In this document: positions 20,749-33,362 of the stretch, one piece after another
How positions within the stretch are numbered: the stretch's first letter is position 1
How the letters are laid out: the number at the start of each line of letters is the position of its first letter
From: Promethearchaeota archaeon
GTDB lineage: Archaea; Asgardarchaeota; Lokiarchaeia; Sigyniarchaeales; SOKP01
DNA: 64,000 nt
Assembly: GCA_019057795.1 (NCBI GenBank)
Contig: JAHLWS010000038.1
Coordinates: 1 to 64,000, forward strand
Direction of reading: 5' to 3'
Made by a program: the position numbers and the translations under genes
Notes under the pieces: model-generated
What the model was told of the DNA's origin: nothing
The model's input: the letters and a program-made list of their open reading frames with translations, nothing else
Databases searched by the model: none

Positions 20749-21027
20749 TCATTTCTTTATCTTTTTTTTAAAAATATCCGGAATTAAACCATTAATCCCA
20801 AGACGGTTCAAAATAGTATCACTAATATCGATTTTAACTTTCATATCTTGCATAGCTTTTAATGTTTCTCCTAACATTTTGGAAAAACTTTCGTTCATTT
20901 CTTTAATAGTATCTGAAGTCAATTTAAGAGATTCTCGAATAGCAAGATTTGTCTCGTGTAACTCTGAAGTCATTTTTTCCATACTAACCCTCATTTCTGA
21001 AATCTCTTTTTTTATTCCCATTATCAA
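20749..21027 (-). CDS. small coiled-coil hypothetical protein
   Basis: Heptad-like helical sequence. Confidence 0.55.
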   Translation of the reverse strand: MIMGIKKEISEMRVSMEKMTSELHETNLAIRESLKLTSDTIKEMNESFSKMLGETLKAMQDMKVKIDISDTILNRLGINGLIPDIFKKKIKK

Positions 21028-21196: not shown

Positions 21197-21334
21197 ATGT
21201 CTGAATGGAAATACAAAATTAAAAAACCCGTAGCCGAAGAAGCATTTTGTACTGGCTGAGGCATCATTGACGGAATCATTTCGTGTATATTTAATATAAA
21301 AAAAAAACGCAAAGAAAAAAAAAGTAAAAAATAA
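21197..21334 (+). CDS. micro-ORF 1 with in-frame TGA (candidate selenopeptide, CTGU)
   Basis: MSEWKYKIKKPVAEEAFCTG[TGA 21257-59]GIIDGIISCIFNIKKKRKEKKSKK-TAA; 20 aa if TGA is a stop, 45 aa if read through. Confidence 0.5.
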
Positions 21335-21338
21335 ACAA

Positions 21339-21401
21339 AATCTCGAGGAGTAAAGCAAAAACGTTAGGTTTTATTCCTTAGTTCCGCAAGAACTTGAGAT
21401 T
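21339..21401 (+). ncRNA. three-way-junction RNA element, copy 1
   Basis: P1 AATCTC/GAGATT, P2 GGAGTAAAGC/GTTTTATTCC, P3 AGTTC-CGCAA-GAACT. Confidence 0.7.
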
Positions 21402-21555
21402 AACTCTTACCTTTTTACTTAATATCGATCTTTTTATTATTATAAAAAATCACATAATTGCCCAGTAACTTTATTTTTTATAAACCTCACCCTTAATACT
21501 CCTGATTTTTATAAACTTAACAATAAATTTAATAATTTTATAGTGAGAAAAACAC

Positions 21556-21729
21556 ATGTCAGAAGAAGATGACTTTGATTTTGGATTTGATTTCGGATTT
21601 GATTTTGGATTTGATAACAATTGCTACGAAACTAGTTGATCGTTACTTACTATGTGGTACTTAAGAGCTTTAAAAACACGAAAAACTAAAGAAAAAATGG
21701 AAAAAAACATAAATAATAAAAATCTCTAA
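21556..21729 (+). CDS. micro-ORF 2 with in-frame TGA (candidate selenopeptide)
   Basis: MSEEDDFDFGFDFGFDFGFDNNCYETS[TGA 21637-39]SLLTMWYLRALKTRKTKEKMEKNINNKNL-TAA; 27 aa if TGA is a stop, 57 aa if read through. Confidence 0.5.
21574..21615 (+). repeat. 12-bp tandem repeat encoding (FDFG)3FD
   Basis: TTTGATTTYGGA x3.5, with a synonymous change in the middle unit. Confidence 0.9.
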
Positions 21730-21786
21730 GATTAAGTCGTTAAATGATTGGATTTAATCAATAAGTTCTATGCAAGAACTTGAGAT
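21722..21786 (+). ncRNA. three-way-junction RNA element, copy 2
   Basis: P1 ATCTC/GAGAT, P2 GATTAAGTC/GATTTAATC, P3 AAGTTC-TATGCAA-GAACTT; shares GCAAGAACTTGAGAT exactly with copy 1. Confidence 0.7.
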
Positions 21787-21833
21787 AGAATTTCTTTTTA
21801 CTTTTTTATTTGAAAAACAAACAGAGAAAAACG

Positions 21834-23198
21834 TTAATAGGGTTTTTTTGACCCTTCTCCAATCTTTCTGTAAATAAAACCTTTTTCTTCAACCAATTTC
21901 TTTTCAAATATGTTCCTTCCATCTATAATAATCGGCGTTCTTACTCTCTTCTTTAAATCAGCAAGATCGATATTGTAATATTCTCTGTGATTTGTAGTGA
22001 AAAGCAATACATCAGCATCGGTTACTGCTTTGTTGAAATCTTTGGTTAATTCAGTAAGATTATAATCGCGTGATTTTACATGGGGGTCGTGAGCAATGTA
22101 AACGATATTATGAGAATGATATCTACTTTTTAGAGCTCTAATGATATTTTCGGTCGGGGTATTTCGCGTGTCATCGGTGTTCGCTTTATACGAGACCCCT
22201 AAAAGGGTTATCTTAATATTGTCTACTAACCTATGGGCGTCTCTGAATACATTTTCCATTAACTCGACCATATGATACGGCATATAATCGTTCAAATTTC
22301 TTGAGTTAGAAATTATCTTCATTTTAGATTCGTTAATTTTTTCAGTATATTTATTAAATCCGTACAATAGAAGCCAAGGATCTTTTGTCAGGCAATGTCC
22401 TCCTACGCCTGAACCGGGGGAATGCATCATTCTGTCGTGGCGTTGATTTATTAATTCTATAATTTCGAATATATTTCGATTAAAATCTTCGCTTAATAAC
22501 GCCATTTCGTTTGCAAATGCAATATTTACGTCTCGGTATGCGTTCTCTATGCATTTAGTTAACTCTGCCGTAAGAGTGTCTGTTATCTGAAGTTCTTTTT
22601 TAACGACCTTCCCGTACAAATACATAGCTTTATCGTTTGCCTCTTTACAACCGCCACCAATTACCCTAGGAAAATTTATGATATACTCCAATAACTTACC
22701 GGGCATTACGCGCTCAAACGAGAAAACAAGATAGAAATCCTTACCCCGCTTTAAACCACTTCCTTCTTCTAAAATAGTTTGTACAACATTATCTGTCGTT
22801 CCAGGTGCTACTGTAGATTCAAGTATGACTGTAACACCCTTTTTTATATGTTTTGAAATCTGTTGAGAAACTTCCTTTAATGATTCATACCTTGGGACTC
22901 TCTGGTCGTCTACAGGCGTTTGTACATCAATTAAAATATAATCTGCAACATCAACATCATCATAATTATCAGTAACCTTAAACTTTCCATTTTTTACCAC
23001 CCTTTCAATTAATGCATCTAAGCCAGGCTCATCCCCTTCAAAAGGATTTTTACCCTTATTAAGCCAATCAATTTTCCAACTTGATCTTTGAGACCTTCGT
23101 TGAATACCCGTAACATAGAAATCGTCTACATCAGCTAACAGAGTAGCCATGGGAATACCAACGTATCCCATACCAACAACAACGATATTAGTAGGCAT
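21834..23198 (-). CDS. nucleotide-sugar dehydrogenase (UDP-ManNAc/UDP-GlcNAc dehydrogenase family)
   Basis: VVGMGYVG, ESTVAPG, ENAYRDVNIAFANE, GVGGHCL, YKANTDDTRN. Confidence 0.92.
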   Translation of the reverse strand: MPTNIVVVGMGYVGIPMATLLADVDDFYVTGIQRRSQRSSWKIDWLNKGKNPFEGDEPGLDALIERVVKNGKFKVTDNYDDVDVADYILIDVQTPVDDQRVPRYESLKEVSQQISKHIKKGVTVILESTVAPGTTDNVVQTILEEGSGLKRGKDFYLVFSFERVMPGKLLEYIINFPRVIGGGCKEANDKAMYLYGKVVKKELQITDTLTAELTKCIENAYRDVNIAFANEMALLSEDFNRNIFEIIELINQRHDRMMHSPGSGVGGHCLTKDPWLLLYGFNKYTEKINESKMKIISNSRNLNDYMPYHMVELMENVFRDAHRLVDNIKITLLGVSYKANTDDTRNTPTENIIRALKSRYHSHNIVYIAHDPHVKSRDYNLTELTKDFNKAVTDADVLLFTTNHREYYNIDLADLKKRVRTPIIIDGRNIFEKKLVEEKGFIYRKIGEGSKKPY

Positions 23199-23343: not shown

Positions 23344-24003
23344 TTATTTTTTCTTTTTCATATATGATGACCCTCTAACGGCTTTAAACATTATTGCTAA
23401 AACGGCACCAGCAACGAAACCTCCCACATGCGCGAAATGTGCCGTTCCTGACATTTCAAGCGCAAAAAATGCGTAAGTCAATTCGGCAATAAAATAAGTT
23501 GCTATAAAGTATCCCGCAGAGACAGCTCTCGTTGATCCTAACAATAAGAATTTATTTGAAGGATATAGTATCATATAAACTGCCATAAGCCCAAATATCG
23601 CTCCAGAAGCACCTAATGAGGGAATACTAGATAACATCGGACCCCATATGGGAATCATTGTGCTGACTGCATGTGCCAGCGAACCGACGAGTCCAGAAAC
23701 AAGATAAGTTATTAAGTAGAAGGTATGCCCCATTGCGTGCTCACAATTGTCAGTTATTACAATGAAAAACCACATGTTCATAATTATATGCATAATATCT
23801 CCGTGCATAAACATTGAGGTAAATATCGTCCATACTTTTTCTCCAGCAAAAAATTCAGCTGGAACAAAAGCATATTCAATGTGCATCTGTCCCGTAGGAT
23901 CCAATATTTGCCATATGAAAACTAGAATATTAGCAACTAAGATAATAACCGAGAAAAATTGCTTCATAAAAGAAATTTTATCGTTTGACGCTTCGAATAC
24001 CAA
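23344..24003 (-). CDS. rhomboid intramembrane serine protease
   Basis: FMHGDIMH..NM, GASGAIFG, AHFAHVGG. Confidence 0.95.
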   Translation of the reverse strand: MVFEASNDKISFMKQFFSVIILVANILVFIWQILDPTGQMHIEYAFVPAEFFAGEKVWTIFTSMFMHGDIMHIIMNMWFFIVITDNCEHAMGHTFYLITYLVSGLVGSLAHAVSTMIPIWGPMLSSIPSLGASGAIFGLMAVYMILYPSNKFLLLGSTRAVSAGYFIATYFIAELTYAFFALEMSGTAHFAHVGGFVAGAVLAIMFKAVRGSSYMKKKK

Positions 24004-32249: not shown

Positions 32250-33362
32250 TTAATATGAATTTAAATCCCGAGATAAGTATCTTTCTTCTAATTTATTCGC
32301 TAATTTTGAACTTAAAATGCTTATTAACACTTTTAAAGAGGCATTTTTTCCCCATTTTTTATAAATTCCTTTGAGTAAGAGCGTCAAGAAAATAAATACT
32401 CCTACGATGGCTATCCAGACACTTAAAACGTTTAATTGTCGAAAAAATATAAAATACAATGGATTATGCGCCAAATAAATAGTAAAAGAGTAAAAAGAGA
32501 AATAATAGAAAAATCTATAACTTTTTTTTGTTTTAACAACTTCGAATTCTTCAATATATAAAAGTATTGAAAGCAAAACTAGAACTGTACCTATTGAATA
32601 TAACATCGAAGAGAACGTTCCATGGTATAAAAAATCAGGAAAGAAAAAAATTGCACCAAATATCATTAAGATTATTCCAATTAACAATGAAAATTTTATA
32701 AATTCATATTTTATCGCATGTTTCCTTTCCTCTTGATCGCTAATTTTGTTAATCTCAAAAAAAACATCTCCTACTACAGTTCCTATAAGAAATACAGAAA
32801 AAAAAGACAAGATAATATATTGATCTAAAGGATGGAATAAAATATGATAAAATACCCCATACATATTAGGTTGACCCATATATGAGGTTAATAATATTAA
32901 GATACATTGATCAGCAACTAATAAAACAATTCCAAGAACAATCCTAAATGTTTTTGAAGTTTTAAGTAGAGGCCACATCAGAAGAAGAGAGACAGCAATC
33001 GTTTGTAAAACATTCCAAGACCAAATCCAAGTAAGATCATTTATCGTAAAAGCTATTAAAGTATTATAAATTAAAGCTATTATTAATATTAATAAAGCTC
33101 TAATAATGTATTCATTTTTAATTTTACGCATAGTGAATTCATTTGAATTTTCAGCTTTTATAACCCTACTTTTATATGATAATGTAGTGCTGAATCCTGA
33201 AATAAACAAAAATCCCGAAGCTGCTAATGGTGCTAAAAGTTCAAAAAGTATTACTTGCAACCATTTATCTTCATATTTTAACCACCAATCGAGCAGATGT
33301 CCCAGAATCATCAGGAAAATACAAAATCCGCGAATAGCATCAATATTTTTAATTCTCTTCAT
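32250..33362 (-). CDS. DUF1624 / HGSNAT-like membrane acyltransferase, copy 2 (inverted paralogue)
   Basis: Colinear with 29614-30714. Confidence 0.85.
   Translation of the reverse strand: MKRIKNIDAIRGFCIFLMILGHLLDWWLKYEDKWLQVILFELLAPLAASGFLFISGFSTTLSYKSRVIKAENSNEFTMRKIKNEYIIRALLILIIALIYNTLIAFTINDLTWIWSWNVLQTIAVSLLLMWPLLKTSKTFRIVLGIVLLVADQCILILLTSYMGQPNMYGVFYHILFHPLDQYIILSFFSVFLIGTVVGDVFFEINKISDQEERKHAIKYEFIKFSLLIGIILMIFGAIFFFPDFLYHGTFSSMLYSIGTVLVLLSILLYIEEFEVVKTKKSYRFFYYFSFYSFTIYLAHNPLYFIFFRQLNVLSVWIAIVGVFIFLTLLLKGIYKKWGKNASLKVLISILSSKLANKLEERYLSRDLNSY

Follow-up and report, generated by a model that had tools for sequence, protein, structure and literature searches.

In the selenocysteine (Sec) insertion sequence (SECIS) elements of euryarchaea, as known in Methanococcales, the GC-rich lower stem and the short GC upper stem are separated by an asymmetric bulge, GAA/A, that is invariant. 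In Lokiarchaeota, the element (lokiSECIS) consists of AUGA, a 9-bp stem, an 11-nt loop starting with AAAAA and ending in (A)G, and then GA (PMC4989117). The AUGA/GA quartet is required by both published Asgard SECIS models, which are limited to core, upper stem, and apical loop (PMC4989117; PMC11227280), and no homologue of SBP2 is known in Lokiarchaeota (PMC4989117). Published hdrA-vhuD pairs share one SECIS element (PMC4989117). Five selenoprotein families were reported in Lokiarchaeota in 2016 (PMC4989117), seven were listed in a 2024 survey of more than 400 Asgard genomes that combined homology to known selenoproteins with SECIS models requiring a GA/[GA]A core (PMC11227280), and the same families are given in a 2026 review (PMC13188914). 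Roughly 12-15% of Asgard selenoprotein genes are reported to have no eSECIS-like structure (PMC11227280). Here, we describe two adjacent small genes with an in-frame UGA, each associated with a structured RNA element at its 3′ end, in a 64,000-nt stretch of a Lokiarchaeial contig (positions 1 to 64,000 of C38, JAHLWS010000038.1; this whole stretch is referred to as the window). The source is G000 (GCA_019057795.1), a metagenome-assembled genome (MAG) of a Promethearchaeota archaeon with a size of 4.95 Mb and 31% G+C. Comparison of the sequences suggests, with a probability of roughly 75%, that both units are small selenoprotein genes and that the 3′ element is a SECIS lacking the kink-turn core.

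The two units are located in parallel on the plus strand, within an 800-nt gap between two minus-strand genes, and comprise the following open reading frames (ORFs) and codons.

21197..21334, plus strand: candidate family 1 micro-selenoprotein gene (unit 1), 45 sense codons including one UGA, then TAA at 21332-21334
21257..21259, plus strand: in-frame UGA of family 1, proposed Sec codon (codon 21), within C-T-G-U
21556..21729, plus strand: candidate family 2 micro-selenoprotein gene (unit 2), 57 sense codons including one UGA, then TAA at 21727-21729
21637..21639, plus strand: in-frame UGA of family 2, proposed Sec codon (codon 28), after C-Y-E-T-S

A sequence-only reading of the window had described two such parallel units in the gap, each with a Cys shortly before an in-frame TGA, an open frame beyond it, a Lys-rich tail, and a TAA, and all of these features are present in the sequence. 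Unit 1 reads from the ATG at 21197 through MSEWKYKIKKPVAEEAFCTG, TGA, GIIDGIISCIFNI, and the Lys-rich tail to TAA, the family 1 peptide being MSEWK...F-C-T-G-U-G-I-I-D-G... followed by that tail. Unit 2 reads MSEED, an FDFG repeat, NNCYETS, TGA, SLLTMWYLRALK, and a basic Lys-rich tail, then TAA; the general motif of family 2 is C-Y-x-T-S-U, and its N-terminus is acidic. The repeat in this N-terminus (FDFG three times) is encoded by a 12-nt unit, TTTGATTTYGGA, occurring three times in tandem at 21574-21615, and relatives contain one copy.

When relatives were searched at the DNA level, the complete locus with both units was recovered from many genomes of the genus (65-92% identity). The observation of two units is far beyond chance, conservation of each ORF and each RNA extending to dozens of genomes. 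For a class-wide comparison, 161 genomes of Lokiarchaeia were searched with profiles. Family 1 is present in 104 of these genomes, from 10 genera of one taxonomic family, each match containing exactly one TGA; family 2 is present in 66, from four genera of the same taxonomic family, and its one-TGA form is found in about 60 genomes. The TGA is invariant in 18/18 distinct genus sequences of family 1, as well as in all more distant homologues inspected, and in 12/12 distinct genus sequences of family 2. The most divergent members of family 1 have unrelated N-termini and keep the motif C-T-G-U-x-[IL]-[IV]-D.

In the translated relatives, both ORFs are conserved: the TGA is retained and the reading frame continues undisturbed past it. 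Frame-breaking indels are absent in more than 80 sequences. Residues that are invariant after the TGA are spelled by two to four synonymous codons each, namely D, G, I, and R in family 1 and S, L, Y, L, R, and A in family 2 (Ser as TCG/TCT/TCA, Leu as TTA/CTA, Tyr as TAC/TAT, Arg as AGA/CGA, and Ala as four codons). The ratio of nonsynonymous to synonymous variation (pN/pS) was calculated in three frames for the 13 codons after the UGA, using a wider sequence set than the genus alone; in frame it is 0.48 for family 1 and 0.29 for family 2, versus 0.76-1.33 in the shifted frames of both families. Coding-type conservation past the TGA, which the sequence-only reading had named as supporting evidence, is therefore seen in both families. 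TAA or TAG at the Sec position and frameshifts after the TGA, which it had named as contrary evidence, were also looked for: the profile searches of the 161 genomes gave no credible homologue of either family with TAA or TAG at that position, and none of the credible homologues contains a frameshift after the TGA. Extra stops in profile matches are real C-terminal stops where checked, or belong to weak matches with E > 0.002. As far as homologous sequences can tell, both ORFs are real genes translated beyond a conserved UGA.

Further evidence is provided by homologues that have replaced the TGA. Four genome matches of family 2 (L067, L068, L069, and L097) have no internal stop and carry TGT (Cys) at the position of the TGA, and more Cys forms of this family occur in a public protein collection (P0035, P0040, P0042, P0044, and P0045), so that the expected alignment of TGA with Cys codons is obtained for family 2. 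The Cys-codon homologues are uninterrupted ORFs of the same length as the TGA forms, and the upstream family 1 gene retains its TGA in genomes whose family 2 is in the Cys form. Most of the remaining entries for both micro-ORFs in the public collection, among them full-length copies (P0001-P0034), have Trp at the Sec position; evidently, these are annotation artefacts in which gene callers applied code 4 to short metagenomic contigs, and they represent further TGA copies.

Each ORF is accompanied at its 3′ end by an RNA element that folds into a three-way junction of three helices (P1, P2, and P3) and is followed by T-rich sequence.

21340..21400, plus strand: 3′ element 1, three-way junction, 80.1 bits to covariance model R1
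21340-44 with 21396-400, plus strand: P1 of element 1
21345-56 with 21368-79, plus strand: P2 of element 1, loop AAAAACGUUAG at 21357-67
21380-84 with 21390-94, plus strand: P3 of element 1, loop CGCAA
21722..21786, plus strand: 3′ element 2, three-way junction, 71.1 bits to covariance model R1
21722-26 with 21782-86, plus strand: P1 of element 2, its 5′ strand AUCUC corresponding to the last two sense codons, with the TAA in the junction
21730-38 with 21751-59, plus strand: P2 of element 2, 12-nt loop
21764-68 with 21776-80, plus strand: P3 of element 2
21410..21440, plus strand: T-tracts after element 1, T5 at 21412-16 and 21431-35
21790..21812, plus strand: T-rich tract after element 2

In the shared fold, an outer stem AUCUC/GAGAU (P1) closes two hairpins. 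In the two units, P2 is a hairpin of 9-12 bp with an A-rich loop of 11-12 nt ending in UAG or UUG, and P3 is a 5-bp hairpin with the loop CGCAA or UAUGCAA; an exact 15-mer, GCAAGAACTTGAGAT, is common to both copies. Minimum free energy (MFE) folding gives this three-way junction for either copy, with z = -2.9 for element 1 and z = -1.9 for element 2. The sequence-only reading had placed the RNA element directly after each ORF. This is correct for unit 1, where the element begins at 21340, but not for unit 2, where its 5′ strand begins inside the ORF. Archaeal transcription terminates at oligo-T, and by analogy the T-tracts after the elements are likely termination signals.

The fold is well defined by covariation. 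When 58 elements were aligned by MAFFT without structural information, RNAalifold recovered P2 and P3, and 13 of 14 pairs displayed double-sided changes. Covariance model R1, representing the three-helix structure, gathered 80 copies in 71 distinct rows. Pairing is kept in 94% of the cells of these rows, and compensatory changes occur in 16 of 20 pairs; none of 500 shuffles matched the observed values, and the signal was lost when the partners were slid. P1 is nearly invariant, the GAGA of its 3′ strand being kept in 69-70 of 70 sequences. In the family consensus, P2 consists of a 9-10-bp stem and an 11-12-nt loop in which the AAA is present in 70/70 sequences and the final U, A, and G in 69, 68, and 70, respectively, and the G of the P3 loop is invariant or nearly so. 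The junction strands are 2-5 nt long; the 5′ junction is variable (A47/G18/U5, then A57/U11/G2) and the 3′ junction is U/A-rich. No known RNA family was detected for the element region in an Rfam scan, which gave sub-threshold C/D-box noise only. The start of the element falls within a range from 13 nt upstream of the stop codon to 21 nt downstream of it, and 73-101 nt separate the UGA from the element. In many lineages (L053-L055, L119-L125, and others), the family 1 ORF enters the element and its stop is a UAA on the 5′ side of P2 (GAUUAAAUC), so that termination there would require the ribosome to unwind P1 and part of P2.

The closest counterparts of this element are the canonical lokiSECIS elements of the same genome. 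A pattern scan of G000 identified at least five elements of the form ATGA-N9-AAAAAnnnTAG-N9-GA/AA, and the canonical elements follow the PrxL, MvhD, and FrhA/VhuU genes and both SelD genes, with two more that have no assigned gene. In-frame TGA is present in the PrxL-, MvhD-, and FrhA/VhuU-type genes that precede several of these elements.

C15:5819-5896: canonical lokiSECIS element
C22 ~32520-32600: canonical lokiSECIS element
C24 ~23530-23620, minus strand: canonical lokiSECIS element
C60:5168-5245: canonical lokiSECIS element
C63 ~23650-23745, minus strand: canonical lokiSECIS element
C26:16753-16830: canonical lokiSECIS element
C26:18278-18355: canonical lokiSECIS element

A 9-bp stem with an AAAAAnnnUAG loop is found in the PrxL, MvhD, and FrhA/VhuU elements and in the two without an assigned gene. 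Folded with their flanks, the canonical elements of G000 are themselves three-way junctions, in the order lower stem, AUGA, upper stem/loop, GA, side hairpin, and lower stem. The side hairpin is present in all of them, with loops including CGCAA, CGUAA, GCGA, UUGCCU, and GCAA-type sequences, and the same architecture is found in canonical elements of other Lokiarchaeial genomes (L168, L172, L176, L177, L185, and L186). This short hairpin, whose loop is often CGCAA- or GNRA-like, is situated after the 3′ GA and ahead of the lower stem's 3′ strand; it may be a conserved lokiSECIS feature that has gone unreported. Upstream of the canonical SECIS-type elements at C24 ~23600 and C63 ~23730 (both minus strand), no ORF of a known selenoprotein is evident, and additional small selenoproteins may lie hidden there.

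The micro-ORF element resembles lokiSECIS in its location in the 3′ untranslated region (3′ UTR) near the stop codon, its lower stem, its 9-bp upper stem, its 11-nt apical loop with adenines first and AG last, and the CGCAA-type side hairpin seen in the canonical elements of G000. The P2 loop is AAAAACGUUAG in unit 1 and AAAAAUAUUAG in relatives, and AAAAAUAUUAG is identical to the loop of the canonical C24 element. Across G000, a 9-bp stem and an AAAAAnnnUAG loop occur together in 12 hairpins, versus five in a reversed-sequence control, and the 12 include five canonical SECIS elements and unit 1. A further likeness is that one element can serve two adjacent UGA-containing genes. By contrast, the lower stem is a near-fixed AUCUC/GAGAU in the micro-ORF element, whereas it is variable in canonical lokiSECIS, and covariance model R1 gives the canonical elements no score. 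Its 3′-UTR location, an apical loop with unpaired adenines, and its proposed action on a distant UGA are reminiscent of eukaryotic SECIS elements, although the micro-ORF element lacks the kink-turn quartet recognised by SBP2 and its helix is much shorter. Euryarchaeal SECIS elements are similar in being stem-loop elements in the 3′ UTR of archaeal selenoprotein mRNAs, whereas the micro-ORF element has no invariant GAA/A bulge, a variable 5′ junction, AU-rich stems, and a three-way junction. The description of the element as non-canonical in the sequence-only reading can therefore be specified as a lokiSECIS-type three-way junction without the AUGA/GA core.

These results are consistent with the following mechanism. 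Two paralogous and independently transcribed genes would encode selenoproteins of 45 and 57 residues, and the ribosome would meet the UGA approximately 20-28 codons into the ORF. Sec would be inserted at this point instead of termination, supplied by Sec-tRNA(Sec) together with the archaeal Sec-specific elongation factor. The recoding would be licensed by the structured element located 73-101 nt past the UGA, at or just past the stop codon. This element would be a derivative of the eukaryote-like Lokiarchaeial SECIS that has retained the lower stem, the upper stem with its AAA...UAG loop, and the CGCAA-type side hairpin, and has lost the AUGA/GA non-Watson-Crick quartet, its junction strands being 2-5 nt of A/U-rich sequence.

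The in silico evidence covers translation past the UGA, interchange of Sec and Cys in family 2, an RNA that is structured, conserved, and exclusive to these loci, and modules shared with canonical SECIS elements. From these, we infer that the inserted residue is Sec, that the RNA directs its insertion, and that the peptides are redox-active. The original proposal of tiny selenoproteins decoded with a non-canonical 3′ element is supported by the conserved TGA, the coding sequence past it, the Cys homologues, and the SECIS-like RNA. The residue at the UGA is very probably Sec. If the peptides are selenoproteins, the 3′ element can be considered a SECIS without a kink-turn core with good probability, and the balance tilts slightly toward the core-less three-way junction being a fully functional SECIS.

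Several points weigh against this reading. All genomes compared are MAGs, and the whole analysis is one of comparative genomics. A tRNA-Sec was not detected in G000 by ARAGORN or at the threshold of Rfam RF01852; the search gave two matches of 73-74 nt at 36-38 bits, which have the size of ordinary tRNAs. Lokiarchaeal tRNA-Sec has a T-arm intron (PMC5330540), and the gene, itself not located in G000, was probably missed for this reason. No Cys homologue of family 1 was found in the 161 class genomes and the public protein collection. Neither peptide has a Pfam-A match at E ≤ 0.01, and the function of the peptides is therefore a matter of conjecture. Unlike lokiSECIS, the micro-ORF element has neither a 5′ AUGA nor a 3′ GA/AA beside the upper stem, and the base of P2 covaries as ordinary pairs (G-C, A-U, and G-U). 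Furthermore, the element persists at four family 2 loci in the Cys form whose sequences are close to Sec-form relatives, with scores of 79 bits in L135, 71 in L138, 57.5 in L133/L134, and 54 in L097. These elements look like cases of gradual decay after recent Cys conversions, and the L133 element differs from that of its nearest Sec-linked relative, L037, by two helix-breaking substitutions. The imperfect correlation between the Cys form and the element is the main internal weakness of the argument. Two related ideas were considered and rejected. A low covariance-model score is not usable as a sign of decay after Cys conversion, since comparably low values are obtained for some family 1 elements in another genus that are linked to Sec; and a kink-turn in hidden or circularly permuted form, with GA at the P2 base set against UGA before P1′, is not supported in view of the covariation of the P2 base pairs as Watson-Crick pairs.

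The alternative that survives best accepts the peptides as selenoproteins and regards the junction as a terminator, a stability element, or a regulatory element of the 3′ UTR, with Sec insertion directed otherwise or needing no element. The missing AUGA/GA core, the position directly before the T-tracts, and the retention of the element after four Cys-form genes would all suit such a role, whereas the junction has its side hairpin, its stem length, and the motif of its apical loop in common with bona fide SECIS elements of G000, and the pattern scan found no canonical-form lokiSECIS on contig C38. The distribution of the junction is also difficult to reconcile with a general role. R1 finds only the two copies in G000 (80 and 71 bits; the next best match scores 25.7), and the ordinary genes of this genome do not use the element as a terminator. 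In closed or near-closed relatives, all significant R1 matches adjoin the family 1/2 locus except for a marginal 32-bit match in G158, so that, this match aside, the junction is present only after UGA-containing micro-ORFs. In the same taxonomic family, G088 contains SepSecS and has neither peptide and no element, and no match to the element was obtained in five genomes from other taxonomic families of the class. Conversely, every Sec-form ORF inspected has an element, either its own or shared. Genus g27 (L086 and L087) and genus g19 (L147) have family 1 and family 2 ORFs that are only ~25-30 nt apart; a single element follows the second ORF in these three genomes, apparently a two-cistron arrangement in which it is shared, and this single copy for two adjacent UGA-containing ORFs also argues for a SECIS. 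In the deeper and most diverged Cys lineages of family 2 (L067-L069 and L136/L137), the element is gone and the next gene lies within ~40-100 nt, while the upstream family 1 gene retains both its Sec codon and its element. A role other than SECIS is therefore considered unlikely.

A second alternative is that the UGA is read by a near-cognate standard tRNA (for example, that for Cys, Trp, or Arg), stimulated by the downstream structure, and that the products are ordinary small proteins. Coding conservation past the UGA proves readthrough and not the identity of the residue, and the element is not a canonical SECIS. However, the UGA is strictly kept in more than 100 genomes although a sense codon would be simpler, the sole natural replacement seen is Cys, a hallmark of Sec positions, and the upstream Cys gives the classic CxxU-type redox geometry. 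The RNA modules common to SECIS elements of the same genome argue in the same direction, as does the presence in this organism of a full Sec system and other selenoproteins. SepSecS is found in G000 with 484 bits, two SelD genes each contain one in-frame TGA, and a PSTK-like gene reaches 143 bits, which is under the equivalog cut-off. Near-cognate decoding is thus quite improbable. Across the class, SepSecS is present in 153 of the 161 genomes; the restriction of the micro-ORFs to Sec-using genomes that the sequence-only reading expected is consistent with this distribution, but does not discriminate when SepSecS is so widespread. A global reassignment of TGA in G000 was rejected: TGA terminates 243 of 1817 long ORFs (13%) and is therefore an ordinary stop in this genome. 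That it is also a true stop here, followed by a non-coding RNA or, as in the alternative offered by the sequence-only reading of 20-aa and 27-aa peptides ending at the TGA, by a long structured 3′ UTR, accords with this normal usage and with standard ORF calling, which ends both ORFs at the TGA, but it is contradicted by third-position variation at invariant amino acids for at least 13 codons in the same frame, by pN/pS of 0.29-0.48 in frame and ~1 out of frame, by the uninterrupted Cys-codon homologues of equal length, and by the lack of indels in >80 sequences, and is very improbable.

The two peptides have been modelled from natural database sequences, using the Cys form for family 2 and a W-for-Sec form for family 1. 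For the Cys form of family 2, AlphaFold2 with 18 relatives gave a mean pLDDT of 81.5, with an acidic disordered N-terminus and a helix at 13-48; for the W form of family 1, the mean pLDDT was 75.5, with a helix at 20-44. Both peptides are thus predicted to comprise a disordered N-terminus followed by one long basic amphipathic helix. In both models, the Cys and the Sec position are located at the N-cap or first turn of the helix (CxxU in family 1 and CxxxxU in family 2). Such a location of Cys/Sec is typical of redox-active CxxC/CxxU motifs, and a selenylsulfide redox function is our best guess, based on the models and on analogy. The profiles of the two families are not significantly alike (hhalign probability of 4.6%), although their alignment puts the Sec positions in register; paralogy of the families is suggested by their common architecture and RNA and by their arrangement in tandem. 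Known selenoproteins of comparable size include VhuU, which has ~50 aa, contains Sec, and occurs in Methanococcales and Loki. The micro-peptides are similar to SelW/Rdx and VhuU in being very short, with a single Sec, a nearby Cys able in principle to form a selenylsulfide, and the Sec at the start of a helix. By contrast, they are predicted to form a single helix and not a thioredoxin-like fold, and they do not correspond to the hydrogenase C-terminal DPCxxC-type fragment represented by VhuU. No sequence similarity to known small selenoproteins was detected, and the sole database relatives are unnamed members of both families. Mimicry of the ribosomal stalk (aP1) tail by the FDFGFD N-terminus of family 2 was considered and rejected; the stalk protein of G000 ends in EEEPTGIGSLF, and the likeness is merely general.

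Full-text searches of a literature library retrieved nothing on either peptide family, on micro-ORF selenoproteins, or on core-less Asgard SECIS elements. Sec recoding by a SECIS in the 3′ UTR is of a known kind, whereas the two selenoprotein families proposed here are undescribed and the SECIS class would fail the defining feature of the published models. Both homology catalogues and core-requiring SECIS models would miss these genes, suggesting that the archaeal selenoproteome is larger than listed and that part of it consists of micro-proteins cut at the UGA or mistranslated with code 4. If the proposal is true, two micro-selenoprotein families in more than 100 genomes would be added to the seven listed for Asgard, and Sec insertion in this Lokiarchaeial family would not need the AUGA/GA kink-turn. 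The determinants read would then be the AAA...UAG apical loop, the side hairpin, and the GAGA strand of the lower stem, of which canonical lokiSECIS keeps the first two, and the reader would be an archaeal SECIS-binding factor, the Sec elongation factor, or the ribosome. The view of the AUGA/GA core as the archetype linking archaeal and eukaryotic SECIS elements would shift accordingly, and a working core-less element in Lokiarchaeia would bear on the scenario for the origin of eukaryotic SECIS/SBP2. An element with the loop and the side hairpin but no kink-turn core would represent a natural dissection of SECIS, through which the archaeal SECIS reader and its key nucleotides become testable. 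The peptides themselves, in which one predicted basic amphipathic helix carries Cys and Sec at its N-cap, are candidates for a minimal selenium redox module.

The units are flanked by the following genes.

20749-21027, minus strand: gene for a 92-aa protein without a significant family match, upstream of both units
21834-23198, minus strand: UDP-glucose/GDP-mannose dehydrogenase family gene, downstream of both units

The sequence-only reading had noted that no plus-strand gene follows the units, and the next gene, that of the dehydrogenase, is indeed on the minus strand. The neighbouring genes (those for the dehydrogenase, a rhomboid protease, the 92-aa protein, and a small zinc-ribbon protein) are all on the strand opposite to the micro-ORFs and offer no functional clue to them. 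The arrangement with a gene for a protein of ~90 aa upstream and a dehydrogenase gene downstream is kept across genera and in metagenome contigs.

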